NCBI GenBank assembly: GCA_973895155.1
Contig: OZ316894.1
Span: 22,353,867 to 22,417,866 of the forward strand
DNA from: Marsupella aquatica
Taxonomy: Eukaryota > Plantae > Marchantiophyta
Reading direction: 5' to 3'
Length of the DNA: 64,000 bases
Numbering within the stretch: position 1 is the first letter of the stretch; each line of letters opens with the position of its first letter. The notes under the pieces were generated by a model. It saw nothing but the letters and a program-made list of their open reading frames with translations. It was not told the DNA's origin and ran no database searches. Both the position numbers and the translations under genes were made by a program. This document shows, in pieces, positions 3,988 to 39,480 of this stretch.

Positions 3988-4140
3988 GGCGAAGTCGCGG
4001 CTATGCAAAAAACAGCAAAACTAAATTAATTCTAACTTTCAAACCACATGTCGGTTTGAGATGAAACTTGCAGGGATGATTCTACTACGCAACTACTACC
4101 TCCTGAAAAAGTATGAGACTTTTCTGACCATGATAGCTAT

Positions 4141-7100
4141 TTAACTAAAATAGCAGAGATCGGCTGATTGTGATAATTGTATACAGAGCTCATTCTTGTT
4201 GAAAAAGTGTTTTGGAGTCCGGTTCTTGAATCTTCTAGTCTGCATTGCTTCTCCAATGATGTCCAGTCTTCTTTCTTGGTAGCATGTAAAGAGCAAGGAT
4301 TTATATTGGCGATCCTTGTCCAATATAGGCAATAGCCTCCGATGAAGCATAACATTAGGTAAAGTGTTCGGTTGATCTAAATTGCTACAAAAGGTAACTA
4401 GATTGTACCTTGAGTTAGAAAAAGTTTAAAATTTATAAAATTTCCATCATTTCTAACTAATGTACAGCATTACACTGGGCTCAGTCTCAAGTTCAGTTTT
4501 TTGTAATCTGATTTTGCCATTATCTTTGGAGCATCGTCTAGTGATTCTATCATTCCAACCTTTGGTCCATTTCTCCATATAAAATGAGTTGCAGGACGGA
4601 CTGTTTTCATATATCCAGTCCTGCCGATCTCGGATCCAGAATTTTGTGAAAATGATAATACTACGGGGCTTCCTGTAGAAGCACTTGTAAAAACCAATTT
4701 AGTCTCTGATGAGCAATATAGAGGAGACAGGGGAGGATTTGAAGCACCTGCCTTCTCTTCTTCATTTGCAGCGGTCTCAGGTACTTGACGATCATCCTCC
4801 TTTGCAAGTGCAATGTCTGACATTTCTCCCAATTCTACTGCGTCAATATTGCCTAGACCATCTACGGTTGCCTTCCAATGTGCGTCCGATGTGGACGATG
4901 TAAGATCTGGGTCCGATTGGTGCATCCAATTCTCTACACCCGCAAAGGGATTTCTTGGTGGGTCGCCCTCAGGTCGACCCACAACATCAGCCAACCCCAC
5001 ACCAAAGTAGGGAATACCTACCACTTGTGTTCCACATTCATCCAAATTTTGGGTGACCCTGTCGTCTGTGTCGTGACCCAATTCTCCTTCCTCAATATCA
5101 TCTTCGCCCTGGTCTACGCCTTCTTTGGCACCAACATGCTCGGAAACCCCATCGCGGGCTCTACCAAATTTGGAACCGCCCATCCGGTCACTCATTATGG
5201 AAGGAACTTTCTCGCAGAGAACCCTTCCATATGCCTGAGTGAAATCATATTCATCCTCAGTGTCTGAATATGCAAAGCATTCTCTGAAACACAACAATGA
5301 CACCTTCATAACCTGTCCTCCCGAGAAAAAGTCAAGTATAGTCTCCCCTTCAGCCGAAAAAAATTCAATAATACTCTGCAGCATACATTTTGGCTTAGCG
5401 TGAATATTCACAAAGCCACCTCTACTTCCCACCATCTCAAACATGGGAGCCTTTCGTAAGAAATCTCCAATGTGAAATGCCAAAGTTGACTCAGTCTCTG
5501 TCTCCTTACTTGTCTTACTCTTATTCTTATCTCGCTTCTCCGTCTTGTCTTCCACTTGGAAATCAGGGTCGATCGCCGAATTGTAAGAAAATTGGTAATT
5601 AAATCCAGGCCTGAACACTTGCTTCCAATCAAATTTCTCCTTAGTGGTGATTCCTGCAAAGATTATCTCCTCCATACCACAACTGAAAAGTAAGCCCTCT
5701 GGAACTGGTGTATCACTCCGTCGATAGCTCCCGTAGTCGACGTGGATGTCCATTCCCTTTTCATGTTGCAATTTCCTAAGGGCACTCAAAATGTTTGCAG
5801 CAAGTGGCCCCGGATGCACAGTCATGACAACAACAATTGTTGGATTTCTTGGAAGATCCACAATGTATTGTAGTAATGCAATAATTTCAGCATCGGTCCA
5901 AACATGTTGTCGGAGCCTACTGAAGTCAACAATGGCAAGAGGACACAAAGGCGAAGGCTCTTGTAGCATTTTCGGCACGATCGTCTTCATCAAATTCTCA
6001 CTAAAAAATGTCAAGAAAGGCTCCGTGCGAGAACGACCAATCCCACCAAATTCTTTACAATACAACCCATCTAGTCTGACCATCAGACTTTGTGGGAAAC
6101 TCTCCTTGACCACATTCTTCTTCAATGAATTGTTGAGGTAAACCTCACCCGCTGCTCTCCTCAATTTTGTCATCTCAAGCTCAGATTTCAAGGAAGGCAA
6201 CAATATCACCAGAGACTCCCAAGATGTGCCAACAGGAAACTTCTCACGATACTTTTCCACGAAATAGCCAATAATGATTGTTCTCAATTTGGACATTATC
6301 TTGATTGTAAGGGCCAAGTCTCCCATTGCGACAAGCTCTGATTTGTTGGTGATATCCTTCTTCAGCAAGACACGCTCCTCTTCAACATCCTTCAAGATCT
6401 CAATTATCTGTTTGCTACTAATCTCTCCTTCAAAGCATCGAAAGGTACCGGGAGTGATCAATTTTGGGGGTCTTGGCCCTCCATACCCACCAGCCCCGTC
6501 TTGGAGCTTCCCACTCAACCATTTTGCACACACGTTCTGCCATAATTCAAAGAGCTCATCTTCGGCAAAAAGTAACCAATAAATGCTCTTTAGGCTTGAC
6601 TTCCCCATTGTAACCTTTGCCAGGGCAAACCAATCCTGCATATCCAATGGACTTGACATTAGTTTCAGGGTACAATGCATATGTTAGAAAATTTATACCT
6701 ATGTTTGAAATAGGCAACTTTGATATCTCCATTGCATGCGAAAGATTGAACATTCGATATACAAAAACGGCCGATGGCGGATTAATACTTTTTACAGGAA
6801 TATCAAAAACTTCGCGGATGCCAAAAGTATAATACTGCTCAATATTACGCAAAACCTCTTGGCCTTTGAGCACATCATCTTCTTTGGGTCCTTCTGTCGG
6901 ACACATATCATCCTCTGGATGCAAGACAAAGTTTGAAGTCGACCCTGACATTGGTTTTGATTTCGCAACCTTTGCCTTCTTTGTCTGCTTTTTTTGGGGG
7001 CCCTCATCATCTTCATTTTTTTAACCATCTTCTTACAGCGTGAACTCCCAGATTGTTTCTCTTGTTGAACAACCGGCTCTTGAAGCTTTTGTTTCTTCTC

Positions 7101-8725
7101 TGTCTTTGATTGCACACTTCTTTCCACTGTCTTCTTTCTCTCCTTTGCCTTATGCTTTGCTTCTTTTTTCTTCATCTCTGAAATCCACGTCCGGCACGCG
7201 GCCTCTTGAAACTCTGGACAAAAAATGAAACTCTTGTCGATTGCTTGCTCGTATGAAAAATGTGCCTTATCAATCATCCTTTGAACTATCCAAGTAGACG
7301 GAGGGTCCACACTGTCCGCATTGTCATGCATGTGCTTCTTTACGTAGAGAAATCCAAACACTAGGTCAACTCCACTTATTTGAGAACGCGTCTTCTCAAA
7401 CATCTGATCAATTGTTACTCCATCTGGGAAGAATCCCATATCAGCTACGCTTATCTCCAATCGAGCCATCCACTCAACATTCAGTAAAGTCGAGTAGAGT
7501 TTTATTGGCACTAGAAGTCTCATCCACTGAGATTTCTCATTGGACTCAACAATAATCGTTGCATTGCGGTTGTTGTCCGTGTTCACAAGGACGACTGGAC
7601 CTAGAGTAACAATTGTCTTGCGGTCATTCAATTGACTTGTGAGGCCCTTGAAACAAATCAAGAGACTGCCTTCCGCCGACACCCCAACTTCTAGTGCCCA
7701 TCTAAATCCTGGAGTATCTTGGTCAGGGAAAACAAAGTCCTTGATATCCTCGTCCATAATATTTAACTCCGGCTTCTCAAGATTTTTTCCTGGTAAGAAA
7801 CATTGAAAACAAAATGGTCAGCATCATATTTTTAACATTGACATGTGGAAAACTTTCAAGGTGCCTCGCCCTTGGGGCGAGGCGACAAATAGAAGATTGC
7901 AAAATCTTCTTTGCTCCTAGTGCAATTAGCCCTGCCACCTCATCCAAGCAATCAAACATTATTTAGGAATGCAGACGATATCGCCTCACCCCAAGGGCGA
8001 GGCAACTTCTAGGAAAGCAAACAACATTTAGGAATGCAGACAACATCGCCTCGCCCCAAGGGCGAGGCAACTTCTGGAAAGCAGACAACATTTAGGAATG
8101 CAAAGGACATCGCCTCGCCCCAAGGGCGAGGCAACTTCTGGGAAAGCAAACAACATTTAGGAATGTAGAGGACATCGCCTCGCCCCAAGGGCGAGGCAAC
8201 TTCTGGGAATGCAGACAACATTTAGGAATGCAGATAACATCGCCTCGCCCCAAGGGCGAGGCAACTTCTGGGAATGTAGACTACATTTGAGGAATGCAGA
8301 CGACATCGCCTCGCCCCAAGAGCGAGGCAAAAAATAGAATATAGCTAAAGATCCTTTATTAATGTAAGATACAAGGTCCAATACGCCTTCGGAGCAACAA
8401 GAAATCTAGAATGAAGTAGACGTCGCCTCGACCTTGGGGCGAGGCGACTGCAAAGGAATATAGAAATTTTCCTAATAAGAAATTTGAAATCCAAATTAAA
8501 GTAAAGTTGCCTCGCCCTTAGGGCGAGGCAAGAAGTTGAAGCAGATGGTGCCTTACGTGGAAAAGTTAATTGGGCTTTCTTTGACGCCTCCAACGCATTG
8601 TTAACCAATTTTTGGACATCCGGGTCTTCAGGGTCATATTCATACAGAGAGTTATAATTGAAGTTCAATGACTCTTGAGAACTGGCGGAGGTGGTGGAAG
8701 CTTCAGAACTGGAGGAAGTAGACAT
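4141..8725 (-). pseudogene. Spliced, frameshifted transposon gene with beta-class N4/N6 DNA methyltransferase-like domain and possible ParB-like N-terminal remnant
   Basis: Exon 8725..8557, GT-AG intron 8556..7790 in phase with ORF 6792..7757, frameshift near the A-run at ~7020, ORFs 6556..6951 and 4470..6680, then 65-nt GT-AG intron 4473..4409 in phase with 4141..4350. HAKPKCMLQSIIEFFSAEGETILDFFSGG...RECFAYS matches the xKP...GDxVLDPFxGSG...GRxxIGxE pattern. Confidence 0.65.
7965..8330. repeat. Tandem array, 6 x ~65 bp, each with hairpin GCCTCGCCC-CAA-GGGCGAGGC
   Basis: Unit starts at 7965, 8030, 8094, 8159, 8224, 8290. Further single copies near 7863, 8425 and 8508. Confidence 0.95.
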
Positions 8726-9884: not shown

Positions 9885-10220
9885 AATAGTTGGAGTAGGG
9901 TCGAAATAATTCTGACCCAACTTATCAATGTTTAGTCAATTAAATCATTTTAAGACATATTGTTGGAGGAGGGTCGAAATAATTCCGACCCGACTTGTAA
10001 ATGTTTAGTCAATTCAATCATTTTAAGACATATTGTTGGAGGAGGGTCGAAATAATTCCGACCCAACTTGTAAATGTTTAGTCAATTCAATCATTTCAAG
10101 ACATATTGTTGGAGGAGGGTCGAAATAATTCCGACCCGACTTGTAAATGTTTAGTCAATTCAATCATTTCAAGACATAATGTTGGAGGAGGGTCGAAATA
10201 ATTCCGACCCGACTTGAATG
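9885..10220. repeat. Tandem array, 5 x 73 bp, each with imperfect palindrome GGGTCGAAATAATTCCGACCC
   Basis: GGGTCG cores at 9898, 9971, 10044, 10117, 10190, plus an inverted degenerate copy near 9770. Confidence 0.95.
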
Positions 10221-10342
10221 TATTTAGGGTTTTGAGTGATTTTACAATATTTTTTGGAGGAGAGTCCAGATTTTGAAACATGATCGTAACATGGGGAACT
10301 TAACAATTTCTAACTTTATTTGAATATAGATAGTCCGCTATC

Positions 10343-13300
10343 ATGATCAATTTTACACGAGGGGATGAAGTGTCATTGGTGATCGATGGATTTGAAACGG
10401 CAATTGGGATAGTTCAAAAGGTTGACCCCCAGGATACTATACAGAACATTTGTCTAGGGGACAATCGAATTGGGGTATTGATCAAAAAGTGTTTTGATGG
10501 ATCGCGTCAACTTCCATTTCCTTCGCCCAAATTTTCTACATTGGCTGAGGCAATTGACTCCTGCGTGGTTTGGGATTGTGCATTGGCATACTTGAGGTCA
10601 TCAACTCAGCGTCGAAGAATCAATGTCGATGATTTCTCTTTGGCTGGAGATGCTGGAAATGATAAATCCAAAATTGATGCAAGGGTTGAAGAGGACGTGT
10701 TCAAGGAAAGAGATGAAGTTCAGATGTTCATTTTTGATCAGTTGGTTGCAAATGGAGTCGTTTTCAAGACAAATCCGATGGATATTTGTCATACTGAAAC
10801 ACTCGGGGTTGGTCGCATAAGTATAAGAATATCTGATATTGTTAAGGGAAATCAAAAATTGCCATACTCGCACCCTGGAGCTGATACAATAGAAGAGGCC
10901 TTGCATACCTGGGTTATCTGGGATGTTGCGCATGTTTCTAGAAAGGGCACTCTACGAGATTTTGGCGTGTTTGGTAGTTCAAATATTTTCAATGATCTTC
11001 CATTAAAAGATTTTACACTACATTCCAACTGGATGGCGGAGGAGGTTGATTTGTATGACGCTTCTCGTTGTCGAAAGGTTGCAACAGGTGTTATCACGGT
11101 CCCATTTGAAACAGGTGCCGTTGATGATGAACTTCTTGGTGCAGATCATGTTGGTGTTGCTGTTGTGAATATCAATGAACCCGGATTATTTCCAAATATC
11201 CGTGTTGGTACCCCTGGCTTGGTGAGGTGGGAAATCAAATCCCTTCTATTGATTTCGTCTCAAAGGTTTCTTGGGGATATCCTTGAGGAAGTTTCAGAGA
11301 AGTGGATGGAGTCGGGTCGAACTAAGGGCGATCCGGATTCGGATGGTGATGGTAAACCTACAAAAAGACCATATAATTTCATTAGGAGGACAAAAGTTGA
11401 TCTTGAGGAGAGGAAGAAAAGGCATTTGGAGTCGAGGGCACTTTTGAAAATTAACGAGGAGTCCATTGATTCCATCCAAAGAGAAGGTTGTTGCAAGCTG
11501 AAGTGTTGCTTGAACATGCCCAGGGAGGACTTAGAGGCAATGAGGAGGGAATACCATGGAATGTCAAGTGACAACAAAAAAAGTCACATCTTTAGTCTCT
11601 TTGGGTGTAGAGAGGAGCAAGTCAAGAGAAAGGGATTTTTTGTTCTAAAGGGACGTGTGGTTTGTAAAGATGCATTTATTAAAATGCATGGGTTCAGTAC
11701 AACAAAGTACTATGACTACAAAAATCAATACAAAGCTGGTTGCACAATTGGTTTCCATGGAAATCAGGGACAACGGAAGACACGATCAAGCACTTTGCAC
11801 GCTCGCGCCTTGTTGGAGTCCATTTTAATCCAAAATGGGGAACCAATGCCACATCTTCCCTATGGTGGGTTCAACGGCACTGACACTATTGAATATCGGC
11901 TCCCATCTTGTTTTACTAAGAAGGAGATTTTCCAAGAGGTGTTTACCAAGATGGAATTAGATGGGTTTGCTAAGGTTACTGAAGTTACTATGTACAACAT
12001 CTGGAAAAACTCATTTGATAATTTTGACTTTCACAAGGGAAGTGCATTTGCCAAGTGCACATTTTGCACTGAGTTCAAAGATCAATTGATGCGGGAGAAG
12101 AGAAAAAAAGAGCGTGCAGAGATTGAAGAGAAAAGAGCGCGACATCTTTGTGAACAAATGTCAAGAAGATATGTTTACTATGCTCATAGGGTTCTTGCAA
12201 AGAAGGATCCTCAAAACTATCTTTGCATTATTCACGATAAGATGGATCAAGCCAAGACTTGGATCCCCAGGTTGGTCCCCACTCCAAATCCCTCTCTGGT
12301 AGTGGTCAGCCTTTGCCTATTGCTCTTACTGGGATGTTAACCCATGGAAGAGATCCTGGAGTGTATGCACATTTTAGTTTGACTGGACTTTGGCTTGGAG
12401 ATGCAGACTTTACCGTGACATCTTTGGCCAAATGCCTTCGAGATTTGGAAGATTACACAGGAGACAAAACTAGAGACCTTCTTGAGGGATTGAATTGGAA
12501 TGCAACTAGGCCAATATTTCAGTCCCTTCTAGACTTTGAAGCATTTCTGGCCGGTTACTTGGAACCCAAAAATGTTTCAATTGTTCGATTTCAAGGCATT
12601 GAAGATGGTCAGGAGACTAAAAAGTCAAGCACAGTGGATGTTGGTTCTAAGGATGATCCTGAGACTACTAGGGGCTCTTTCAAGCCCTTACCAAGGCACC
12701 TAATGTTGCAGATGGACAATTCAGGGAAAGATAACAAAAATCAATATGTGATGGCATTTTGCACTGAGCTTGTTAGCAGGGGGTGTTTGAAACTGTGCAA
12801 ATGTCATTCCTCATGGTTGGCCACACCCATGAAGACGTGGATGCATTATTTTCTCAAGTATCCAAACAGGTCAGATACAAAGAGGTTGCTACCCTCTTGG
12901 GGTTGATGGCTGAGGTTTGGGAGTGTGAAAGCATTCATCCTGTACCACGATTGATTCAAGAGGTTGCATCTTACAAGGAGTATTTGAAAACTTTCCAGGT
13001 GAAAGAGATAGAAGGTCACTCAAAACCAGTGGCTTTTCTTTTCTCCATGAGGGATAATGTGCCAGTGTATCAATATAAAGCACATGTCAAGCAACCTTGG
13101 CTTCCGGCAATGGGGAGGTCCATTTGGAGAACTGATCCCATCACAAATGCGCTCATTTGACCGGAAGGCCAACCATTTGCAAAACCTATATCTGGGATGT
13201 ACAAAAGAAGGCTGGAGAAATCATCCCATTCCTTAATCGCTATATTGATTTCTTGAAGAAAAGTTGTAAGGATGAGACCTCTGCAGCATATAAAGAGAGA

Positions 13301-14056
13301 TTTCCTCTGGTCAAATATTGGGAGAATCTTGTGCAAGCACTGTCCGAGGAACTTACAATAGAAGGGGAGGGGGAAAGATATTTGTCATTGACAACTGATT
13401 TTTGGCCAAAGACTAACCATGGCACAGGTTACAAGATGATTTTGGGGACATCTCAGCCGTCAAGTGAACCTTCTCAAAATCCAGAGATGATGGACCTTCA
13501 AAATGAGTACATGGAAGAGATGGAAGATCAAGCTGCACCCTTTGTTGGTGCACGACAAGAGCGAGAACCTGCACGTTGGATTCCTCTACAAGATATTCAA
13601 GAAGGTCACTTTGTATTTTTACGTCCAGAGGATGAATGGGAACAGGAAAATGGCAAAGGGCGTTTCTGGTTGGTTCGAGCTTTGGGTGGTGTGGATCCAA
13701 ACCATGAGGTTCCCTCAATAGATTTGCAACATATTGAAGGGTCTTCTTCAACGTCTGTTGAGAGCATTCCTCTTAGGAATGCTCCTATGTTCCAAGTACA
13801 ATGGTGGAGGCCTAAACATGGTAAGCATGATGCAAAGGATGATGTTCGATATGAACGTTGCTTTCAAACCACTAAGACTTGGGAGCTGGATCCTGGGTTT
13901 GACAATGTTACTCAAAGTTAGCAGTTTGCAAATTCTGCAATGTATGGGTTTAAGTCAGGTGCTAAAGAACAAAATATTATGGATAGAGGTTTGACAATTC
14001 CTAAGAATGTTTTGAAAACTCTCAAAATTTACATGGAAGGTATAATTGATGAGTAG
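10343..14056 (+). pseudogene. Disrupted DUF7869/Sola-like DDD transposase with three N-terminal En/Spm TNP1-like domains
   Basis: Four overlapping ORFs join via frameshifts and stops. Motifs: CC..CC, CTFC, IIHDKMDQ, LQMDNSGKDNKN, SFLMVGHTHEDVDALFS. Three repeats of (A/V)xGxV...LG...LP...W at the N-terminus. The frame continues past TAG 13919 to TAG 14054..14056. Confidence 0.8.
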
Positions 14057-14139
14057 ATTGATAGAACTCGTAGGTTACAAGTCTCCACTCAAATGACTTG
14101 TGATTAAGAGGGTCGAGTTGATTTCCATGCATTGGTCTA

Positions 14140-17100
14140 TGTGGTGCGTCCCATGGCTCCCTAAACCCAAGAAACCCCCCAGCTCAAGCCGATTCCCGCA
14201 GGTTTTGTGTTTGGCGAGGCCGTTTCCGCGGCTTAGCGGCATGGGACGCTGCTAACCTTCTACTACTACTATTAACATTTTACACACATATACTGGACAG
14301 ATCCTTCATCGGGTCATGAGATACGTAGCCGGCCTAATATAGGCCTTCCCCTGTCTTCCCCTGTCTTCTTGTTAGGTATGTTTGGATTCCGCCGCCGGAA
14401 TGATCCCCAATAGGCTTGGTTAAGCCGCTAAGACCTCTCTCAGCTCGACACATCCAACTCTCACTCCCCTGCTTACTTTCCTTCCTTCTGTTGATGTGGG
14501 CACTCTTCACACAAGTTAATGCGACACACAAATAGCAAAATGACTCATTCTGACTGAGTCATACCATGCACTTGCCATACAAACAGTACATCTCATACAC
14601 AAGTTCTGCGAACTAAGCCGTGAGGCCAACTCTATTCAGCTCTTAGGCATGAGGAAACATGAATATACACAAGGGTCATTGTATGACTAACCGAGAGCTT
14701 CTCGTACTACTTGATCCCAGCCCGGCTGGTGCAAACTAAAAACTTGCTAAAGAAGAGGCCCTGAGCTCCCCGCTGCCCAGGTACTTATCCTGGTAGTGGA
14801 TCCGCCATTCTTTGCATCGTAAGCCTAATCTACCTGACAGTAATCTACTTGCCCGAATCTACCTATGTACAGCAAGGCAGGAGCACAAGTGTTGCTCCTA
14901 CCAGTGGGACCGCAATCCCACTAAGCTAAGTGTCAGGGCCGCTCCTGGTTCTGATCCTAATCCTAAACGTGGAGATCCGCGCCCGCCCTGCCCACTCACG
15001 CCTCCTCCCTCCACGTCCGCCCTCCCTAAAAGGAACGGCGCCCTTGCACCGTCACGACACCGGTGGTGGATCCTCAATGGACGCCCCCAACACTTCCTCC
15101 TCAGCCACTGCCGTTGGCCCGCCTACTGACAGATTACCTGCCCTTGACCGAGTCAACTCTCCATCGGCCTGACTGGGTCCACCTTCGGCTTCAGCCTCGA
15201 CACCGGCCTCGGCAATACCCACGGCTTCGGCCTCAGCCACTCCCACGGCTTCGGCTTCAGCCACTCCCTCGGCTTCGGCCTCCCCTTCCCCTAGGGTAGT
15301 TGGATCCTTAGCCGTGACCCTGTCTGGGGTCGGTGCTGGGTCTACCTCCTTGATCACCACGGCCTGTGAAGTCGTATTACTCCTTGACCCTAAAGGTTTC
15401 CGCTTCTTCTTCGTTGGTGGCTCGGCAGCTGGTCCCTTCCCCTTCCCACTTACTTCCGGCACTGGTGCAGTTGACGCGGCTTGTCCTTCGGCAATTACCA
15501 TCCCTGGTAACTGGTTTGTCCCAACGGGAGATGGACCTGCTGCAGCTAAGCATTTAAATACTGCGGCTTGTTTCTTCAGCCGCTCTGTTTGGTTGTCGGC
15601 CCGCCGCTGTAGGTTCTCCATCTTCCTCGTGATTTCCTCCAACTCCTCTTGGGTTTCATCCAGGTCCTTACGTGCCCCCTCCAGCTCGTTTTTGGCCTCC
15701 TCCTGCTCCCTGTGGGCTTCCTCCAATTCCTTCTTCAAGGTAGCCCTCTCCTCCCGGGTTGCTCTTAGCTCCTTGTCGAGCTCTGCAATGATGACAGACT
15801 CCATCTGGTTCATCTTGGCGTAAGTCTGTTCGAGCATCTCGTCCTTCTCCCTTAGGTCGGCCTTGAAGCTGGCCGTCAGGGACGCAAGCTCCTGCTGCAG
15901 CGCCATAATCCCTTGATAGGATTTCCCTAACTCGACCTCCTTCTGCTCAAGGGCTCCGCGGATTTTCTTGAGCTCCCCTTTCAACGCCCATTCCTTTCTT
16001 TGGGTCTCCGCCATGGCCCGGCTGTTGGCTGTTATGTGGGCCTCCTCTGTATTCTTCAGCTCTTGCTTCCACTTCTCCCTCTCTTTGATCGTGTCGGCCA
16101 ACTCTTCCTGCGTCTGAGTCAGTTTATCCTTGATATTCTGATTATCAGCCTGCGCGGTGTCCAACTGCCCCTGCATGATGTTGAGCTCATGTCGTTTAAT
16201 CCGCAGTTCATCTTGGGCTTTCTTGGCCGCCCTTAGATCTTCAATCTCGGCTTCCATCCTCCTAAGTCGCCGAATGACCTCGTCCTTCTTGCTTCTCTCT
16301 AAAGCCACCGCTTCTTCTAATTGGTGCTTCTCCAACTGCTCCCTATGGAAAAAGGGTCCTACCTCCAACTCCTCTCCAAAGATGCCGAGCGCAAGTTCCC
16401 CACACATCTCACCATACTCCATGGCTCTATTCTTAGCGTAGGTGGAGTAAGTAGAAGTGATCGGCATCGCCCATCGTGGCCTCTGCTCCCAAGCCGTCCT
16501 GCGGATCTCTTCAATCGTGGCTAGAGGTTTGCTTCCTTTTTCGGCTAGCCGCCTGATGTCCTCCGGCCAATCTCCTCCTGGTAAATCCTTTTCCTTAGCC
16601 AGGGCGGCCTCTTCCTCCTGCTTGATTCGCTCCTGAAATTCCTGCACCGTCTGTTTTATGCCGTCGAAGCTCGGGGGAGCAACATCTGGTGGGGGAGACT
16701 CAGGGCTACTCTGCTGGTTGGGGTCCCCTCGCACTACCCTTGGAAGTGTGGGGACAAACCGGCCACAGGTCCTTACTCCTGGAACGTGATGGTCCGACCC
16801 ATAGCCGGAATTATCATGGCTGCAGTCCTCCACTGCCTCCTCTACCTCTTGGACGTCCGGCTTCTCCCTCTCCTCTTCGTCGGTAGGAGCTTCAGGCAAT
16901 TCTGCCTCAGATTCGGAGCTTGAGGTTCCCACGTACATTCGAACACCTGGCTTGGATTCCGGCCTGATTCTCTCCTTGTCTCCAGCAAAGGGGTTTTCTC
17001 TTGTGAGCCGGTGTAGGCCTACCTCTGTAGTAGTGTCCTGCATTGTTGCCGTTGCCGTTGTTGTTGCCGATGCCGATTTCTTTTCTTTCTCCAGTAGTTT

Positions 17101-18790
17101 CAGCAGACTCTGCATGCCTGGTTGCTGCATCGGCAAGTCTTCCTTCCTGGGCCTAAACACCTGCTCGATCGTAGGACTAACAGGTGGTTGAGGCTTCTTA
17201 GCCAACGGCCTCGGCGTTGGAGCTTCCTCGGGTGCCCTTACCTGCAGGGGAAGTACCGGGGCAAAAGTCTGACCTCTGGCATACCGGCACAACAGCGGCA
17301 TGTGATAGCCAAGCCGCGACACGCTCCCCATGCCGATTACCTGCTGCTCCTCCTTTAAGATCTTCTTCAATTGGTTGAGGAGGTACCCGTTGTAGTCCCG
17401 GCTTGGGTCTGGCCTTTCTGCCAGATAGACCTGTGCCTTGCCGATCTCTGCCCTCGGCAAGTTACAATGCATGGTCACCCGCAAGAAGTCGATCATCTCT
17501 CCTATGTGCGGGTTGGTGCAGGTGTTCCGGAAGAAGCCATTCTTCGTTGATGGCCCGGGGAACGACCGGAACTCCTTGTCAGGCAAGGTCTTCCTGGTAT
17601 CAACTTTGGTCTTATTGCCTATCGGCAGGCCAAACACTTCGGCAATTACCTTGGGAGTAAGATAGAAATCCTTCCCATATATCCTCGTGCAATTGGTCTC
17701 GGGTTCCCATGACCCCACGAATTCTAATAGGTCTGACTCCGGTACCTCCGGCTTCAGCCATGGTAATCTTACAAAGGCCTCCAAGCCGGATCCGGCCATG
17801 AAGCCTTGGTACTTCTTGGTCTGCATGGCCGTAAAGCATGCATCCTCCTCCCGTGCAAAATGTAGTTGCACCTCCACCGGTAGGGTTGCCGCCCAGCCCT
17901 TCCAGGTGTCATCTCTGGTTGGAATGGCCTTGATGGGATCGACCTCCTCCTCTTCGGCTTCTCCCTGCCTCCTGCTCTGCTGCTCGGCTGGCTTCTTTGG
18001 TGCCGCCGACCTCGTTCTTTTTGCCGGGGTGGCTTCATCGTTGACGGCTCCCTTCCTCTTCATCTCTGCTGCCGTGGAGGTTTCTCCTAGCACCGTTGCC
18101 TGGGTCCACCTTTCCGTGCAACCCTTTAATTCCCAGTGTATGTCGTTGCAGTTCTTGATGGCCTCTCGGATGCCGACGACGCTGTCTTTGCAAAACAGAA
18201 GATCGTCGAGTTGATTGGAAGTAGGCGTCCACAGGAACTCGTCCTTGATGAGTTCGCCTCCTAAGAAAGCCGTCTTCTACAGCTCCCACAATCGAGCGAG
18301 CTCCTGCCGTTCTCGAGCTGCCCTTTCTGATTCCTCGTCCTCGTAAGTCTTGATGTACTCAGTTGCCCGTTCGAACAGGCATCCCCAGAAATGTGCCGCT
18401 TGATTGATGTTGCTCATACCCTCCTTAGGTCGATCGTCGGTATCTACTCTCTCCCCGAGTGCTTGCCTAAGCAGCTGACAGTAGTTGGCCTCCCGTAGTC
18501 GTCTGCCTAGTTCGTGCTCGCAAATGAGCCACCATCTCCTGCAAGCGCTCCTTACCCCTCTCCTCTGCCGGTCCTTCTTCCCGTTGATCCTTCCTAGCCG
18601 CCGACGCTTAACGCGCCCTAACCCTAATCGGGTTTTCACCCTTAGCCTTACCTCCGGCCTCGGCCCGGGTTCCATGGTTGCCCCTAATTGTTTATATTTT
18701 CCTTGTTTTGTCACTATACTAAGGTGTTCCTAGGGTGCCTTCCTGCTTTACCCACTTAACCGGCCGAGTGATTCCTGTCTAGGCATCACA
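14140..18790 (-). repeat. 3' LTR (4651 bp)
   Basis: Near-identical to 25015..29665 and directly preceded on the minus strand by the PPT. Confidence 0.97.
15052..18675 (-). CDS. LTR-encoded accessory protein (PMD/Athila-extra-ORF-like domain plus long coiled coil), one in-frame TAG at 18277..18279
   Basis: The 145-aa and 1013-aa ORFs share a frame and are separated by one TAG plus 61 open codons. ATG at 18675 is in ACCATGG context. LLEFVGSWEPET...LTPKVIAEVFGLP motif and E/K/L heptad-rich region. Confidence 0.8.
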
Positions 18791-20236
18791 TAGCTCCCCA
18801 CTTAATTGTGAAGCGTCCTCGCAAACAACTTCATCTTCGTCCATATAGTATTTCTTGAGGCGGTCATAATGGATGCGAACTGGATATACCTCTCCCGTAA
18901 TGTTGGCCAATTGTACGGAGCCATTGGGGAACATCATGGTTACTCTAAAGGGTCCTAACCAGCGAGTGTAAAGCTTTCCTGGAAACCTACTATACCTACT
19001 GTCATAAAGTAGCACAAGATCACCGGTATGAATACTAACTACTTTTAACCTTTTATCATACTGCTGCTTCATGATATTCTGTCTATATTCTACTCTCTCG
19101 GCTGAAATCATTCTCGCTTCCTCTAAAGCTTCTAACCTATATTCTCGCTCCTTTAGGCTCTCCTCCGCTGAGGCTCTTTCCTCAATTGTAACTTGAAATA
19201 TCGGTATCTCAAGTTGCATGGGTACCAGGGCTTCTTGTCCAAAGGTTAAGAAGAAGGGTGTATGACCGGTAGTGGATTTATAGGCAAGATTGTAAGCAAA
19301 AACAGCAACAAACAATTTATCATCCCAATCGAGTTTGTTCTGAGCTACTGTCTTGTTCAATATCTTTCCTATGATCCCGTTTGCTCGTTCTGTCAAACCG
19401 TTTGCCTTTGGATGGTAGGGAGTAGTAGGCCTATGTTTAACTAAATACTGCTCATTTAAACGACTAATTATATCATTCAAAAAATGGGTTCTTCTATCAC
19501 TAACTAATTCTAGGGGTGCTCCATACCTGGTGAAGATCTGCTCATACATGAATCTAGCCGTAGTAATTGCATCATCCTTCGTTGTTGGTCTGGCCTCTAC
19601 CCATTTAGTTGCATAATCCGTAGCCAGGATTATGTACTTGTTCCGTCGAGGGTGGGTCAGTGGTTTCAGAGGTCCAATGTAATCAATACCCCACTTCTCG
19701 AATGGTGCCAGAGGTAGAATAGGGTGCAGTGGATGCCTGGTGGACGCCCTTGGTCCTCCCGCTCGTTGACAAGGATCGCATTGTTTGATAAACTGATAGA
19801 CATCTTTGTGCAAGGTGGGCCACCAGTAACCGGCATTTAATATCTTCTTAGACGTGGTTACTGGGGCAAAATGTCCTCCGGCCTCCTCTCCATGCATGGC
19901 CCGTAGGACTCGTTTTACCTCTCTCTTTTCCAAACACCTTTGAATCGTGCCGTTGATTCCATGCTTGTGTAGTATGCCTTTAATGCACTGATACTGTCTG
20001 ACCTTCCGCACAAAGACTGCGGCTTGCTCTCGGCTTAATCCTGGCTGTAATCTGGAAGTGCTGAGAAATTGTAAAATCTTAGGGTACCATGTACCAGCTA
20101 TTTCCACAACGAATAGCTCCTCGTCGGGGAATCGATCATCGATGCAATCCGTGGCAGGTTTACCTGTGATCCTTGAAAAGAAGTCGGCATTGGCATGTAA
20201 CTTTCCCGGCTTGATCCTTAGCTCATAGTCAAACTC
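18779..20236 (-). CDS. pol: End of RNase H plus integrase (3' part of pol)
   Basis: HHCC (MHG..GHF..CDPCQ), DDE (GIDY, VSD, TER) and GPF module. In frame with the RT ORF across one TAG. The stop codon lies inside the 3' LTR. No chromodomain. Confidence 0.95.
   Translation of the reverse strand, partial: EFDYELRIKPGKLHANADFFSRITGKPATDCIDDRFPDEELFVVEIAGTWYPKILQFLSTSRLQPGLSREQAAVFVRKVRQYQCIKGILHKHGINGTIQRCLEKREVKRVLRAMHGEEAGGHFAPVTTSKKILNAGYWWPTLHKDVYQFIKQCDPCQRAGGPRASTRHPLHPILPLAPFEKWGIDYIGPLKPLTHPRRNKYIILATDYATKWVEARPTTKDDAITTARFMYEQIFTRYGAPLELVSDRRTHFLNDIISRLNEQYLVKHRPTTPYHPKANGLTERANGIIGKILNKTVAQNKLDWDDKLFVAVFAYNLAYKSTTGHTPFFLTFGQEALVPMQLEIPIFQVTIEERASAEESLKEREYRLEALEEARMISAERVEYRQNIMKQQYDKRLKVVSIHTGDLVLLYDSRYSRFPGKLYTRWLGPFRVTMMFPNGSVQLANITGEVYPVRIHYDRLKKYYMDEDEVVCEDASQLSGELCDA
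18791..18804 (-). promoter_or_regulatory. Polypurine tract
   Basis: TAAGTGGGGAGCTA immediately before the TGTGATG start of the 3' LTR. Confidence 0.85.
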
Positions 20237-22021
20237 CTATAATAGCAAAATCCATCTTGCTACTCTGCCTGTAAGGTCCGGCTTATTGACTAGGTACTTC
20301 AAACTTTCATGATCAGTATGAAAGATTACCTTGTACCCTAGTAAATAATGCCTAAACTTTTTACAAGAATAAATGACTCCTAATGCTTCTCTTTCCGTGG
20401 TAGAGTAGTTCCGTTCGGCATCGGCAAGCTGACGGCTTGCGAAGTATATGGGATGGTCCCTTCCTTTCTCATCCAACTGACTTAGTACTGAGCCAATACA
20501 GAAGCCCGAGACATCTACAAAAACATGAAAATCTTTGTTCCAGTCCGGTGCTATCATGACTGGGGCCTCTACTAACATCTGCTTCAATTCTACCACCGCT
20601 GTGACTTGTTCGGGTGTGGGTTCGAAGTCTGCTCCTGCCTTGAGCATATTGGTTAATGGTAAAGCCAGCTTGGCAAAATCCTTGATGAACCGGCGATAGT
20701 AACCAATGCATCCCAAGAAGGATCCTACATCCTTTATGTTCTTAGGTTGCATGATATCTAGCCATACTGCTAGCTTACCTTTGTCAATCTCAATGCCCTT
20801 CCTTGATACCTTGTGACCTAGTAGCACCCCCTCGGTTACTGCAAAAAAACATTTATCTGGGTGTAACTTGAGACCCACCTCTCTACATCTCATGAAGGTT
20901 TTCCTGAGGTATTTAGCATGTTTCGATGCCTTCCCGAATACTGCAAAGTCATCAATGAAGATTTCCATGAACTTTCTCAAGTAATCATGAAAAATGTTCA
21001 CCATTAATCGTTGGAACATAGCTGGTGCGTTGCAGAGTCCAAACGGCATACGATTGAAGACATAGATCCCCCATTCCGTGATGAAGGCCGTCTTGATTTG
21101 GTCTTCCTGCCGAATCCTGATTTGGTTATAACCAGAGTATCCATCCATGAATGAATATAGTTCATGACTGGCTACCATGTCTAGTACCATATCAGTAAAC
21201 GGTAAAGGAAAATGGTCTTTTAATGTTGCTTCATTCAGCTTCCTGTATTCCTGACAAACCCGGATCTTGGGTTTACCATCGGGTCCAGCTTTCTTGGGAA
21301 CTATCACAATTGGAGACACCCAGTCTGAATGCAGGACTGGAGTGATGAATCCAGCTTCCACTAGTTTGTCGATTTCTGTTTTGACCAGCAGGGAATACTT
21401 CGGGTTCATCCTTCGAATTGGTTGTCGAAATGATTTGGCTCCTAACATGAGATCAATTCGATGTTCCCCTAGTGTTGGATCTACTCCCTTTAGATCTTGG
21501 TGACTCCATGCAAACACATCCTGAAATTCAATCAATAAGTCACTGATCTCTTTCTCGAGCTCAGGTGCTAGGTTTCTCCCTAAGTTCAGTTCTCTTCCCT
21601 CTCCTAAGTCGAGCTTCCGATATTGCCGTGCTTGGATCATATTAATCTGCTTCTTCAAATTCGGGTCCAGTTCGGCTTCCAGTCTCTCTAATCTCATACC
21701 TCCATAAACTGGGATTTCGGCTGGACTAGCCGAGTCGGTCCCTTCCTTGGTGTCCATAGATTGTCCCCTTACCGGTCTATTCGGTTTTGAATTAGTGGTC
21801 GGCTCCCCTTCCTGCCTTGGCTCTAGATCGTGTCTGTCCATCTCATCCACCTCTTGCTCCTGAGAGTTAGGCCGCTGTGCTCTCTCGGCTTCTAATAGGG
21901 CCTCAATTTGTTCTGCCCTCGTAATCGGCTTGTATGCCGATCCCTTGGTATTTAATTCCTTGCCGATGATCGATGGCGTTGTGGACCCCGTTGGCTCTGC
22001 CACAACGCCTGCAGAAAATCC
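20237..22021 (-). pseudogene. pol: Reverse transcriptase-RNase H with premature TAG
   Basis: DHFPLPF, DGYSGYNQI, MPFGLCNAP, FIDDF, RNYSTTERE, TDH. WILLL*EFDY has TAG in place of the conserved Gln. Confidence 0.95.
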
Positions 22022-23367
22022 ATTGTCCCTGCTACTGCTCCCCACTTAGCCGTTTCATCCAATTGGTCTACATCCTTTACTTCCTCCGGAATTGCAGCTA
22101 AAAAGGTGGATTCTATTGTAAAGCAGTCCTCGACCTCTTCGTCTTCTTCTTCCAAGTCACCTTCCATTGGTTCTTGCCATAATCCGTTGGGGGGTACCTC
22201 TGGTCCAAAGACACCTTCTTCGGTTAGGTTAGTGAGGCATTCTAACCAACGTACTTCATCGGCTGACTCCAGTCCACTGTCGTACCCATCTATTTCCCTT
22301 ATGCTTTTCCTACGGTCATCCTTAATGTCCCAGGATACCGTGATAGAGGGGGTCCCGAAAGTGAACTGCTTTTTACCCCAATCTTCTATTACCTCGGCTA
22401 GGTACAGCCATGGCCTACCAATCAATAGCCGGAATGACGTAGGATTTACCGGCTTCATTACTACATAGTTAATGCTAAAGAAGATACCTCCTATCTCTGT
22501 CTTGATGCCGGTTAACACTCTCGTCGGAATGACCTGATATCCATTGGCCATGTTCAACACTCTTCCAGTCATCTCCGGTGTTAGACCCCACCCTTTTGCT
22601 GTTGAATCAATCATAATACATACCCCTGATCCTCCATCGATGGGTACCCGTAGTAATAATTCTCCTTGAATCATTAATGGTAATGCTGGGGCTCCTTGAT
22701 CTTCTTCTATCATTAGTACGTCGGATCTGGTTGCTACCTTGGGTAATCTCGGCTTGCCGAGAATAGCCTTCCTTAATTGCTTCTGGAAGTACGGGCTATT
22801 TTTCAATAGTTGACCTACTGTTGCCGAGACTCTAGATTCTAGTACATCTTTAGCCAGGTCATAGGGAACAATCGGCTTCTCTTCTGGTGGTGTTTCCGTC
22901 TTGGATTCGGCCAGTTTTGCCACGCTAGTCTCCACAGCTGTTGGGTCTTCCGAAGCAAACAATGCTTTTGCTCGTTTTACATCCTTGGCAATGGCTTCGG
23001 TATTCTCCAGGGTTTCTAATTCTCTTAGTTGTTCCTTAACACTAGCCGTAACAGAGGGGTAGAACAACTTAGGATGATCTCGATTGAAGTCGCTATCTTG
23101 TGAAGGATTGGTTTCACTGGTGGGCTCATGGCTTACCTGTATTGCCGGAGCCCTCCCTTCTCCTTCTGTTGATGTTGACGAAGAGTCGATCCTTTCCTCC
23201 GTAACCTTCCCTTTATTTTTGGCCAGCCCATCCCACCTTTCCTTCCTTCTGGTAGATCGAGTAGAGACCCGGTAGCAATCATGATCTAAATCCTCCTCTG
23301 AGAAGGTTGATAGGGCTTTGGCCTCATCATCAGATGGTACGAACTCTGCCTCGGCATCCTCTTGCCA
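21952..23367 (-). CDS. Aspartic protease region, in the gag frame after a TGA
   Basis: IDGGSGVCIM and LLIGRPWL motifs. The frame is open from 23367 to TAA at 21952. Confidence 0.85.
   Translation of the reverse strand, partial: WQEDAEAEFVPSDDEAKALSTFSEEDLDHDCYRVSTRSTRRKERWDGLAKNKGKVTEERIDSSSTSTEGEGRAPAIQVSHEPTSETNPSQDSDFNRDHPKLFYPSVTASVKEQLRELETLENTEAIAKDVKRAKALFASEDPTAVETSVAKLAESKTETPPEEKPIVPYDLAKDVLESRVSATVGQLLKNSPYFQKQLRKAILGKPRLPKVATRSDVLMIEEDQGAPALPLMIQGELLLRVPIDGGSGVCIMIDSTAKGWGLTPEMTGRVLNMANGYQVIPTRVLTGIKTEIGGIFFSINYVVMKPVNPTSFRLLIGRPWLYLAEVIEDWGKKQFTFGTPSITVSWDIKDDRRKSIREIDGYDSGLESADEVRWLECLTNLTEEGVFGPEVPPNGLWQEPMEGDLEEEDEEVEDCFTIESTFLAAIPEEVKDVDQLDETAKWGAVAGTMDFLQALWQSQRGPQRHRSSARN
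21975..22021 (-). promoter_or_regulatory. Candidate programmed -1 ribosomal frameshift signal (PR to RT)
   Basis: In-frame G_GAT_TTT (22021..22015), 5-nt spacer, perfect 10-bp stem GGCGTTGTGG/CCACAACGCC with 15-nt loop. The RT frame is -1 relative to PR and the two overlap only here. Confidence 0.75.
22037..22048 (-). promoter_or_regulatory. Candidate central polypurine tract
   Basis: TAAGTGGGGAGC identical to 18793..18804, ~140 bp from the element midpoint (21903). Confidence 0.55.
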
Positions 23368-24945
23368 TCATAGTTCGATGTGGTTGATTTGAACTCCTCC
23401 GGGGGTAGTACCTGGCGGTAAGATCTTGATCGGCAAAAGCTTATGATTTGCGGCCAGGCCTGCCAACCAAGTAGGACATTGCCCTAGCATATGACCTTCC
23501 TGTCGGCATCCCATACATAGCTGAGCTGGTTGTCCATCACCCTGTTTGCGTGCATTCGGGCATTCTCTAGCAAAATGGCCAGGTTGACCACAATTATAGC
23601 ACGCCGCAAATCTTTGCACATTCGGCCTAGGAGGTACTGACGGGTTCTGAATAATCCGAGGATACATCTCTCCTGGATTGTTCCTTAACCCTGACCACAG
23701 AGATGCAGGTCTGTTGGATAGGTCTCGTGCTCCAGTCTCACTGATGCCGAAAACACTATCAGCGGCATCTCCCAAAAAGTACTCTACTTCTCCCTGACAT
23801 GGTCTGATCTCGGCCACATGCCGAACATGATTAGTATTAAGCTTAGGACACGCATCTTTATGGTGTCCGGTTTTATAACATAAGGCACACCATACAGAGC
23901 TATCCTCCTGTACTACCTTCTTCTTTGGTTTTACCTCTGCAATGATAGCCTTAAGTTGCTCGGTAAGGGCTACGATGTTATCTGGTGGCTTAGCCTCCAT
24001 CTTGACTTTCGTCTTCCCTCTCCTTCTGCCCTTCCTTTTCCTAGTTTTTTCTTCTTCAGAACTAGAAGATGACTCACTCTTGCTACTCCCACTATCCGAG
24101 CTTGACTTATCACTTCTAGACTTCTTGGAATGTTTCTTCTTCTTATCTTTTTTCTTATGGGGTGATCCCTCCTCTGATGAGGAACTCTCAGACTTAAGCT
24201 GTTTCTTCCGGCTTGTGATATCTGCATTAATGTATAATTGAATATCCTTAATTGCTTCGGCTAAAGTCTCCGGGTTCTCCTTCCTAATTGCAAAACTCAT
24301 CTTCTGTGGCAAAGCATTCACCAACCATTGAAGTTGCATACCTTCAGATGCATTGGTCTTTGTACGTCTTACCAGTTTCTGAAAGCGTTGCAAGAACTTC
24401 CTGAAGGATTTGTTCTCCTTGAACCGAAGTTGTCCCAACTTCAGCACTGCTAGTTCTGAAGTTCCAATGGGTCGAAACTCCTTAACAAAGAGTGTTTTGA
24501 AGATATCCCAGATGGCTTGATCTTCCACATCTAATGCTCTGTACCAAGGCCTAGCCTCACCCTTGAACAGGCCGGGAAGAATCTGCATCTTGATGGCCGA
24601 TTCTCCATTTGCTGCAGCGGTTCCCTCGAAATCATCCAACCATTCGTCCGGATCCTCATCTCCTCTCCCATGAAATGCCTTGTAATGTATGCGCGACCGC
24701 TGGCTCAATCTGGTCCCTGGCCTCTCGTCTGGCCGTGCCTCTGGTTCCCCCATGTCGGTTGGAGACTCACTTCTCCTTACCGACTCTTCTTCTGGTATGT
24801 CTTCTTCGACGCCACTTCCAGTTTCGGAGCTACCAGCTCTTTCTGCCCCTCTCAGTCGTTGTGTATCATGCCACCCGGCGAGCTGCTGCAGTCGAGCTCT
24901 CTCCCGTTGAATCACTCTTTCTTCCCTCGGCGTAAGGTCAGTCAT
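23368..24945 (-). CDS. gag: Gag with three CCHC zinc knuckles
   Basis: FHGRGDEDPDEWLDDFE..ARPWY capsid motif; CALCYKTGHHKDAC, CYNCGQPGHFAREC, CMGCRQEGHMLGQC. Confidence 0.95.
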   Translation of the reverse strand: MTDLTPREERVIQRERARLQQLAGWHDTQRLRGAERAGSSETGSGVEEDIPEEESVRRSESPTDMGEPEARPDERPGTRLSQRSRIHYKAFHGRGDEDPDEWLDDFEGTAAANGESAIKMQILPGLFKGEARPWYRALDVEDQAIWDIFKTLFVKEFRPIGTSELAVLKLGQLRFKENKSFRKFLQRFQKLVRRTKTNASEGMQLQWLVNALPQKMSFAIRKENPETLAEAIKDIQLYINADITSRKKQLKSESSSSEEGSPHKKKDKKKKHSKKSRSDKSSSDSGSSKSESSSSSEEEKTRKRKGRRRGKTKVKMEAKPPDNIVALTEQLKAIIAEVKPKKKVVQEDSSVWCALCYKTGHHKDACPKLNTNHVRHVAEIRPCQGEVEYFLGDAADSVFGISETGARDLSNRPASLWSGLRNNPGEMYPRIIQNPSVPPRPNVQRFAACYNCGQPGHFARECPNARKQGDGQPAQLCMGCRQEGHMLGQCPTWLAGLAANHKLLPIKILPPGTTPGGVQINHIEL

Positions 24946-24992
24946 TACCTACGCCTCCGTTCTAACTTCATATCTCACGGCTTAAGAAATGC

Positions 24993-25010
24993 CCCCTCCA
25001 TCTAGCGCCA
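24993..25010 (-). promoter_or_regulatory. Primer binding site (cognate tRNA not assigned)
   Basis: TGGCGCTAGATGGAGGGG begins 4 nt (TTTT) after the CA end of the 5' LTR. Confidence 0.85.
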
Positions 25011-25205
25011 AAAATGTGGTGCGTCCCATGGCTCCCTAAACCCAAGAAACCCCCCAGCTCAAGCCGATTCCCGCAGGTTTTGTGCTTGGCAAGGCCGTTT
25101 CCGCGGCTTAGCGGCATGGGACGCTGCTAACCTTCTACTACTACTATTAACATTTTACACACATATACTGGACAGATCCTTCATCGGGTCATGAGATACG
25201 TAGCC

Positions 25206-25220
25206 GGCCTAATATAGGCC
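25206..25220 (-). promoter_or_regulatory. Candidate LTR TATA element GGCCTATATTAGGCC (copy at 14331..14345)
   Basis: TATA-like core in GGCC flanks ~190 bp before the LTR 3' end and downstream of the LTR ORF. Confidence 0.4.
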
Positions 25221-25926
25221 TTCCCCTGTCTTCCCCTGTCTTCTTGTTAGGTATGTTTGGATTCCGCCGCCGGAATGATCCCCAATAGGCTTGGTTAAGC
25301 CGCTAAGACCTCTCTCAGCTCGACACATCCAACTCTCACTCCCCTGCTTACTTTCCTTCCTTCTGTTGATGTGGGCACTCTTCACACAAGTTAATGCGAC
25401 ACACAAATAGCAAAATGACTCATTCTGACTGAGTCATACCATGCACTTGCCATACAAACAGTACATCTCATACACAAGTTCTGCGAACTAAGCCGTGAGG
25501 CCAACTCTATTCAGCTCTTAGGCATGAGGAAACATGAATATACACAAGGGTCATTGTATGACTAACCGAGAGCTTCTCGTACTACTTGATCCCAGCCCGG
25601 CTGGTGCAAACTAAAAACTTGCTAAAGAAGAGGCCCTGAGCTCCCCGCTGCCCAGGTACTTATCCTGGTAGTGGATCCGCCATTCTTTGCATCGTAAGCC
25701 TAATCTACCTGACAGTAATCTACTTGCCCGAATCTACCTATGTACAGCAAGGCAGGAGCACAAGTGTTGCTCCTACCAGTGGGACCGCAATCCCACTAAG
25801 CTAAGTGTCAGGGCCGCTCCTGGTTCTGATCCTAATCCTAAACGTGGAGATCCGCGCCCGCCCTGCCCACTCACGCCTCCTCCCTCCACGTCCGCCCTCC
25901 CTAAAAGGAACGGCGCCCTTGCACCG

Positions 25927-29550: not shown

Positions 29551-29954
29551 GGTTGCCCCTAATTGTTTATATTTTCCTTGTTTTGTCACTATACTAAGGT
29601 GTTCCTAGGGTGCCTTCCTGCTTTACCCACTTAACCGGTCGAGTGATTCCTGTCTAGGCATCACAGTCTAAAGTGAGAGAACAAGACAATTAAATTAATA
29701 CTCTATGATCTCTCAAAGCTATTGAATGGACTTTCTTATAATTATTATTTTATTTGTCTTAGTATATTTTAATTCTAGAAAATGATGTCATTTCATTCCT
29801 TCTAGTAGGTTGGATATCATCCTAGTTAACTTTGTCTAGACACTATAGTCATTCCATTGTATTGGTGCTTAGTTAGATATCTTACTCAAGCTAAATGTTT
29901 TGAATATAGATGCTATCCAAGCTTATATGTTATTACCAGATTCTATCTATTTTC

Positions 29955-39303: not shown

Positions 39304-39480
39304 ACGAAGGTTATATCAACTGCATGCAGAGCGATGATACTCGTCACGAAATTTCTACGAAAAAGAATCGCCTTAGCAAATTCACGAATCCCCCCAACTG
39401 CGATGACTGCTCCTTAACAAACCGTGCTATTTATGACACAGTAATGCCAGTGGAATAAATACTTGGTGACATGAAAGCAT

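Follow-up and report, generated by a model that had tools for sequence, protein, structure and literature searches.

The 64,000-nucleotide stretch of the liverwort Marsupella aquatica analysed in this study (assembly GCA_973895155.1, contig OZ316894.1, positions 22,353,867 to 22,417,866; referred to as the window, with its first letter as position 1) contains a Ty3/gypsy retrotransposon of 15,526 bp, each long terminal repeat (LTR) of which carries an accessory gene of about 1,200 codons. This gene, which fills 78% of the LTR, is real, is found throughout the element family and is unusual in scale for a plant retrotransposon. The element lies on the minus strand, as do all of its features given below, and its internal region measures 6,224 bp. 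A direct repeat forms the LTR pair, with the 3' LTR at 14140–18790 and the 5' LTR at 25015–29665. Both copies are 4,651 bp long, run from TG to CA when read on the minus strand, and differ by six mismatches and no gaps (0.13% divergence); all six are transitions, four of them at CG or CHG sites. Identical target-site duplications (TSDs) of 5 bp flank the element (14135–14139 and 29666–29670). The primer-binding site (PBS; 24993–25010), which we take to be of the tRNA-Asn type, starts 4 nt past the 5' LTR, and a polypurine tract (PPT; 18791–18810) abuts the 3' LTR within the integrase frame. With the 5-bp flanks, a PBS running from 25010 and a purine tract ending at 18791, the boundaries that an earlier note on this DNA had based on TSD, PBS and PPT were confirmed.

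The LTR-resident open reading frame (ORF) was called at 15052–18675 in the 3' LTR and at 25927–29550 in the 5' LTR. It runs on the sense strand of the element from an ATG at 18675 to a TGA at 15052, comprising 3,624 nt or 1,207 codons from the first ATG, with its start 115 nt inside the LTR, 104 nt past the integrase stop; a second ATG is situated at codon 87 (18417). The earlier note had described one sense frame of 3,624 nt, located about 100 nt behind the integrase and duplicated in both LTRs. Length, spacing and duplication could be reproduced, but the frame is interrupted in both LTRs by an in-frame TAG at codon 133 (18277–18279 and 29152–29154), which had been overlooked. The window copy thus consists of 132 codons, a stop and 1,074 codons. 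When the LTR was shuffled 300 times with a second-order Markov model, the longest open frame reached 323 codons (mean 177), and a chance origin of the 1,074-codon frame is excluded.

Eight of 17 public sequencing runs were aligned, all as contigs (X1, X2, X3, X6, X7, X8, X10 and X12); X1 or X2 possibly derives from the source species and is not independent of the window. In all five runs covering codon 133, which carry five organism labels, the stop was nearly or wholly absent, while X7, X10 and X12 do not reach this codon. At position 18279, 373,264 of 379,776 depth units in X1 (98%; 44 contigs) and 307,415 of 319,822 in X2 (96%; 45 contigs) differ from the stop, and the entire depth of X3, X6 and X8 is without it (one contig each for X6 and X8). 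The distant homologs P0008 and P0010 also keep one frame through this position. As judged from these contigs and homologs, the stop is a lesion private to the window copy. Programmed read-through was rejected as an explanation, because a sense codon is found there in other copies and in homologs.

The same LTR ends were recovered in the other runs. In X2, joints were found at both 14140 and 18790, in X12 a joint at 18790 and in X8 a loose end behind 18790, while an X6 contig matches 18521–18790 and then continues into unrelated DNA. Joints in X1 and X2 link the PBS side (25013) to 14140–14155. The depth of the ORF relative to the internal region is expected to be 1 if the ORF is internal and 2 if full elements alone are present. 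The observed median ratios of LTR to internal bins were 3.58 (X1), 3.47 (X2) and 3.40 (X3, from the gag-protease bins only, as the reverse transcriptase and integrase bins attract other families), with equal depth in the ORF bins and in the non-coding bins of the LTR. Although contig depths, when summed, do not give a true copy number, the excess over 2 suggests that solo LTRs outnumber full elements. These results, tiled from contig pieces, support the residence of the long frame in the LTR across the family and not as a one-off. About 40 nt at 18785–18827, comprising the integrase end, the PPT and the first LTR bases, are shared with far more abundant families in runs X3, X7 and X12. These families continue into unrelated AT-rich LTRs and diverge within the first few bases; since the surroundings of the PPT are common to families with different LTRs, the PPT is confirmed and the LTR is the family's own. 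In addition, several joints of X1, X2 and X12 on 14140–18790 place the LTR end of one copy inside the LTR of another, with short joint sides (22–35 nt), which suggests nested self-insertions.

A search with codons 1–480 against 1.84 billion protein representatives gave 21 hits at E<=0.001. Twenty of these are plausible, while P0018, a bacterial Ig-repeat protein, was discarded as spurious. The homologs cover codons 91–246 and 247–471 at 25–48% identity with a steady motif pattern, and the best of them reaches 41% identity over codons 247–471 (E 5e-49). The conserved stretch of codons 91–246 (17938–18405), which spans the stop, is matched by P0008, P0010 and P0006 at 33–41% identity. Of 17 hits whose records were checked, 15 lack an informative name, and the other two (CAM6090539.1 and CAM6122807.1) are unnamed proteins from the liverwort Calypogeia fissa. 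None of the 21 hits covers codons 1–90, and the true start may for this reason be the ATG at codon 87; codons 1–90 overlap telomere-like words and may represent leader sequence. A word-index protein search with codons 1–480 returned nothing among 7,996 candidates, nor did one among proteins of 1,379–3,935 residues, and a word-index profile search recovered only P0013 among 7,998 candidates. Pattern matches in metagenome contigs (61 and 79) and in viral contigs (21) included no confirmed relative, which excludes nothing, and the protein collection lacks the window's own ORF products (three of three).

At the nucleotide level, the common indels avoid the ORF. In a first set (12 of 25 indels considered), all nine that fall in the LTR lie in its non-coding 22%, forming about five clusters (P ~5e-4), and in a second set (12 of 47), five lie in the ORF, all in one contig and summing to 6 nt. 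Larger losses from the ORF, of 21, 63, 105 and 147 nt, preserve the frame. None of the 31 listed ORF variants creates a stop, these being drawn from the best-supported 40 of more than 1,100 and of more than 500 variants. On these sequences, the protein-level evidence for a gene is good and the nucleotide signal of selection weak.

From its N-terminus onwards, the predicted protein comprises a basic region, the stretch 91–246, a helical domain (247–471), a disordered acidic and proline-rich linker, a coiled coil, a basic motif and a repetitive acidic tail. Nineteen of the first 50 residues are lysine or arginine, and basic motifs are located at residues 23, 219 and 1089. The domain at codons 247–471 (17263–17937), 225 residues in length, is conserved among the homologs and mostly helical with one beta-hairpin in the predicted models. 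A long coiled coil of about 260 residues was predicted for codons ~780–1040 (15556–16338), with SMC-type matches far below the family cut-offs. No membrane helix could be found in the 1,207 codons, with a best 19-residue hydrophobic mean of 0.98, or in six homologs checked, the best 19-residue means across frame and homologs ranging from 0.83 to 1.47. The GC content at third codon positions (GC3) is 0.63 in the LTR-resident frame versus 0.44–0.47 in gag-pol.

The comparison of the domain with PMD and with the extra ORFs of Athila and Tat elements, as proposed in the earlier note, yielded no Pfam or fold match and only a lead in the Atlas. No hidden Markov model (HMM) match above the gathering score was obtained for PMD (PF10536), DUF1985 (PF09331), Transposase_28 (PF04195) or Athila ORF-1 (PF03078). 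The closest Atlas neighbours were unnamed plant clusters (0.90), a DUF1985 cluster (0.89) and another in which PMD makes up 14% of the members (0.88), so that the lead to DUF1985 and PMD stands at 0.88–0.89. Fold searches were run with two weak models and gave a best E of 8 against the PDB via Foldseek, a best E of 0.17 in BFVD and best Z scores of 3.6 and 3.5 among 48,161 chains via VIA-align, and a profile search of PDB sequences gave a best E of 9; these four results exclude nothing. PMD, Transposase_28, Athila ORF-1 and DUF1985 proteins resemble the window protein in their helical domain, which measures about 200 residues and includes a beta-hairpin, and in the disordered sequence and coiled coil behind it, while the homologs of the window protein, unlike these families, form an unnamed group without an HMM match.

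Based on this anatomy, we tentatively propose, at a probability of roughly 45%, that the product may act in the nucleus as an oligomeric helper of the PMD/DUF1985 (VANC-like) kind that binds chromatin or DNA and would favour the element's own expression. Several published findings describe such a kind of protein. PMD-C is similar to DUF1985, a domain of the anti-silencing protein VANC (bioRxiv 2024.09.27.615353); VANC in turn resembles MAIN, and the models of both VANC and the Athila domain are coiled-coil pentamers (PMC13547354). VANC binds to short motifs of the element that encodes it (PMC5735166), and the PMD-A clades are Gypsy-encoded (PMC5418596).

A number of observations weigh against this proposal or against the gene on which it is built. 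No Pfam family matches the domain 247–471 even at E<=10, and no relevant Pfam match was obtained in 19 aligned members or in the 21 hits. The Atlas scores of at most 0.9, with 136–158 shared features, amount to a lead only, and both structure models of the domain are poor, with predicted local distance difference test (pLDDT) values of 51 and 50. VANC is described as dicot-specific (PMC13547354), and no tandem motif array of the VANC type was seen in the non-coding part of the LTR, where no 8-mer occurs more than twice. Synonymous changes account for 13 of the 31 listed ORF variants versus 9.1 expected (P=0.09), post hoc subsets of the variants reach only P ~0.04–0.05, and the last 190 codons are without synonymous excess (3 of 11 versus 3.2). 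Frame-breaking changes of the ORF were found in some contigs, namely 1-nt gaps in two X12 pieces and a net loss of 40 nt in one X1 joint. Finally, no contig spans the whole LTR, and the family architecture is tiled from pieces.

Some of these points would suit a passenger ORF, once functional or captured and now copied along with the LTR without selection: the synonymous excess is non-significant, some contigs have broken frames, and a copy with the stop in both of its LTRs was still able to transpose. The window copy, however, also carries private stops in gag-pol, which indicates that it moved in trans, and its codon-133 stop is absent from most copies under five species labels. The avoidance of the ORF by common indels, the lack of stops among the listed variants and the motif pattern kept by homologs at 25–42% identity likewise speak against a passenger, which we regard as improbable. 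A still weaker case can be made for an artefact of assembly, or for short LTRs that were lengthened by a local tandem duplication. Although no read or contig spans the whole element, the exact TG..CA ends, TSD, PBS and PPT at the repeat edges, the six independent transitions (four at CG/CHG) and the same ends in runs from other species make this explanation hardly credible. The possibility of an artefact had been raised in the earlier note, and the recurring LTR ends, the equal depth of ORF and LTR and the transitions between the LTRs all came out against it. With regard to function, the protein could act on RNA or particles, its arginine-rich N-terminus binding the element RNA and its coiled coil polymerising, as an export or packaging factor; CERV of the C. 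elegans element Cer1 is reportedly a precedent, as is retroviral Rev. The 19 basic residues among the first 50, the 260-residue predicted coiled coil and the export help that a genomic RNA of 11–15 kb would need agree with such a role. Codons 1–90, on the other hand, have no homolog, overlap telomere-like words and may be leader, and the only leads for the conserved domain are families of chromatin factors, so that a role in RNA export or packaging seems rather unlikely. An envelope-like membrane protein, comparable to the env-like ORF of Athila, would match the sense position downstream of pol that is typical of env-like aORFs (PMC7264820), but the absence of any hydrophobic segment from the 1,207 codons and six homologs makes it very improbable.

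Apart from its function, the position of the gene within the transcription unit has to be considered. The PPT at 18791–18810 precedes the frame on the minus strand, as the earlier note had stated, and by the known course of reverse transcription the frame is present in both LTRs because plus-strand synthesis starts before it. The long frame is most likely situated in U3; transcription would then start mainly within the final 900 nt of the LTR. The non-coding 3' part of the LTR (14140–15051; 912 nt) is a candidate promoter and poly(A) region; it contains a T/TG-rich stretch at 14690–14510 and TATA-like words at 14667 and 14341. Alternatively, the gene may lie in R/U5, with transcription starting near the 5' end of the LTR, the ORF as first cistron, polyadenylation at the end of the 5' LTR and read-through yielding the genomic RNA, an arrangement compatible with either protein function. 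A TATAAA at 18696, 125 nt into the LTR, and telomere-box-like words at 18687–18621 also fit a start near the LTR 5' end and count against U3, and the T/TG-rich stretch, 360–540 nt past the ORF stop, resembles a plant 3' end. In that arrangement, however, strong-stop minus-strand DNA would reach a length of about 4.5 kb and a 3.6-kb ORF would precede gag-pol, and TATA-like words are also found near the LTR 3' end, so that we hold R/U5 to be possible but doubtful.

For a gene in U3, the following course of events can be envisaged. The frame would have begun as a usual sense extra ORF, placed behind pol and ahead of the 3' LTR, and would have been incorporated into the LTR once plus-strand synthesis was primed upstream of it; alternatively, a new U3 could have recombined in behind the PPT shared by the lineage, for which the GC3 contrast (0.63 versus 0.44–0.47) may be noted. 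Reverse transcription would then copy the frame into both ends. The transcript of the gene would come from a short promoter of its own at the start of the LTR or would be produced by splicing, as in the case of retroviral nef or sag of mouse mammary tumour virus (MMTV); a scan for splice sites yielded five weak candidate acceptors and three candidate donors, of which none was convincing. The protein would act against silencing, and solo LTRs would retain the whole gene. The statement of the earlier note that any solo LTR spreads a complete gene does not apply to the window copy, both LTRs of which carry the codon-133 stop. That a VANC-like anti-silencing gene moved into the LTR, giving a self-contained unit of promoter and trans-acting factor, is conceivable from the sequence, but we consider it an unlikely scenario in this specific form.

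The internal region encodes the domain order gag, protease, reverse transcriptase, RNase H and integrase, with the protease assigned by position and motif and the other four via Pfam. The gag frame (23368–24948; capsid and zinc knuckle) ends in a stop that is missing from the other copies in four of four runs. The protease-region frame (21952–23367), in phase with gag, was recognised by its position and, by eye, from a degenerate aspartic-protease-like motif, and gave no Pfam match. The frame of reverse transcriptase and RNase H (20237–22045) is closed by an in-frame stop preceding the integrase frame (18779–20236). The integrase stop, at 18781–18779, lies 10–12 nt inside the 3' LTR, a point missing from the earlier note; integrase frames running into the LTR are known from CRM elements. 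No additional RNase H (aRH) could be found, a single RNase H region being followed directly by integrase, and no chromodomain match was obtained at E<=0.05, the integrase ending 20 residues past its C-terminal domain. In the region 13900–25200 Rfam gave no match, and ARAGORN detected no tRNA across the 64-kb window.

The change of frame from protease to reverse transcriptase is -1 and coincides with a candidate programmed frameshift at 21975–22021, in which an in-phase slippery heptamer is followed after 5 nt by a perfect 10-bp stem (z -2.55; equal stability in 1 of 200 shuffles, for a signal found after the fact). An X3 contig of 765 nt covers 21635–22399 without gaps, and the frame change is therefore present in another copy too. 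An exact 12-nt copy of the PPT core at 22038–22049, 140 nt from the centre of the element, is a candidate central PPT; matches of at least 12 nt were reached in 4 of 2,000 shuffles and in 2 of 232 control LTR 20-mers, this signal likewise having been found after the fact. Lentiviruses and foamy viruses use a central PPT, and here such a copy would help to finish the 15.5-kb DNA. Both candidates are retrovirus-like and fit a very long genome. At the rice substitution rate of 1.3e-8, which may not fit this host, the 0.13% LTR divergence corresponds to an insertion age of about 50,000 years. The window copy is a young, defective element and was likely mobilised in trans, because the lesions common to both LTRs came from the template.

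The domain order, TG..CA LTRs, TSD, PBS and PPT all assign the element to Ty3/gypsy. It lacks the chromodomain that defines chromoviruses and the aRH that defines Tat in REXdb (TatI-III, Ogre, Retand). Two traits of Athila and of the aRH-less liverwort Tat Z2 group, the 5-bp TSD and the absence of aRH, are present, and the PBS is presumably of the Asp/Asn type that is a trait of Athila. The retroviral arrangement in which an ORF downstream of the PPT occurs in both LTRs, as for nef and sag, is also found here. Genes overlapping U3 are known from retroviruses as MMTV sag, lentiviral nef and foamy-virus bel2; they comprise 200–400 codons and mostly only overlap U3. The window gene shares with them its location downstream of or across the PPT and its copying into both LTRs, but it has 1,207 codons, lies wholly inside a plant LTR and shows no sequence relation to them.

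With a 5-bp TSD, a length of 15.5 kb and a long extra ORF, the element does not conform to Phygy or Selgy, which are characterised by a 4-bp TSD, short size and lack of an eORF (PMC6317226). Candidates for its placement are Athila and the liverwort Tat Z2 lineage without aRH (PMC13468544), both of which, like the window element, have the order gag-PR-RT-RH-INT (protease, reverse transcriptase, RNase H and integrase after gag), no aRH, no chromodomain and a 5-bp TSD. The frame change between protease and reverse transcriptase, as in Ogre and Retand (PMC6317226), points to Tat rather than Athila. Unlike the window element, Tat Z2 is not mentioned in connection with giant LTRs or LTR-encoded genes in the available sections of PMC13468544. 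The sense extra ORFs of plant Ty3/gypsy elements and SIRE (aORF-3S or eORF-3'F; PMC7264820, PMC6317226) resemble the window frame in being downstream of integrase, long, fast-evolving, without a catalytic domain and hosted by non-chromoviruses. They are described as internal and upstream of the PPT, whereas the window gene is downstream of the PPT, occurs in both LTRs, occupies 78% of each and has no membrane helix. The eORFs of Ogre and Retand are 5' or antisense and internal, unlike the window frame. Ogre and Retrosat2 share with the window element LTRs of 3–6.5 kb and an extra ORF, Retrosat2 also having many solo LTRs, but their long LTRs are treated as non-coding, with the extra ORF outside (PMC6431247, PMC3485330). 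According to reviews, the extra ORFs of plant elements are found in the internal region (PMC7264820, PMC11963269), and no LTR-encoded ORF of a plant retrotransposon was found described in open-access literature by word search. Extra ORFs of Athila and Tat are known but internal; what sets this family apart is the residence in the LTR at a 1,200-codon scale.

The surroundings of the retrotransposon in the window contain further mobile DNA and a host gene. Intronless frames on the minus strand at 847–7817 probably belong to another mobile element and adjoin a 65-bp tandem array (7950–8330); they include a NIF/FCP1-like phosphatase frame at 847–1911 (PF03031, E 3e-16) and a 737-codon frame at 4470–6683 with a weak N6/N4 DNA-methylase match (E 0.004, below the cut-off). 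On the plus strand at 9886–13921, a 73-bp tandem array is followed by frameshifted frames with a DUF7869 match at 12241–12906 (E 2e-15), and this region is probably the remnant of a degraded DNA transposon whose end lies immediately to the left of the insertion site. Exons of a host M20 peptidase (aminoacylase-like) gene are located at 34672–36548 on the plus strand, some 5 kb away from the 5' LTR. A 345-codon frame on the minus strand at 38278–39315 starts with basic, low-complexity sequence and has a coiled coil at its C-terminus; tblastn gave no similarity between this frame and the LTR protein.

Because annotation treats LTRs as non-coding and extra ORFs are surveyed in the internal region, genes of this type are missed by design. 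The role of the extra ORFs of plant retrotransposons has long been open, and a young liverwort family of high copy number, with an unnamed PMD/DUF1985-like domain, allows anti-silencing to be tested directly outside the flowering plants. If the LTR contains an anti-silencing factor together with its promoter, each solo LTR would keep supplying the factor to the family, and recombination between LTRs, the main deletion route of the host, would multiply the helper gene relative to gag-pol. If the position in the LTR holds throughout the family, what is usually counted as a dead remnant, the solo LTR, would here be a gene cassette.

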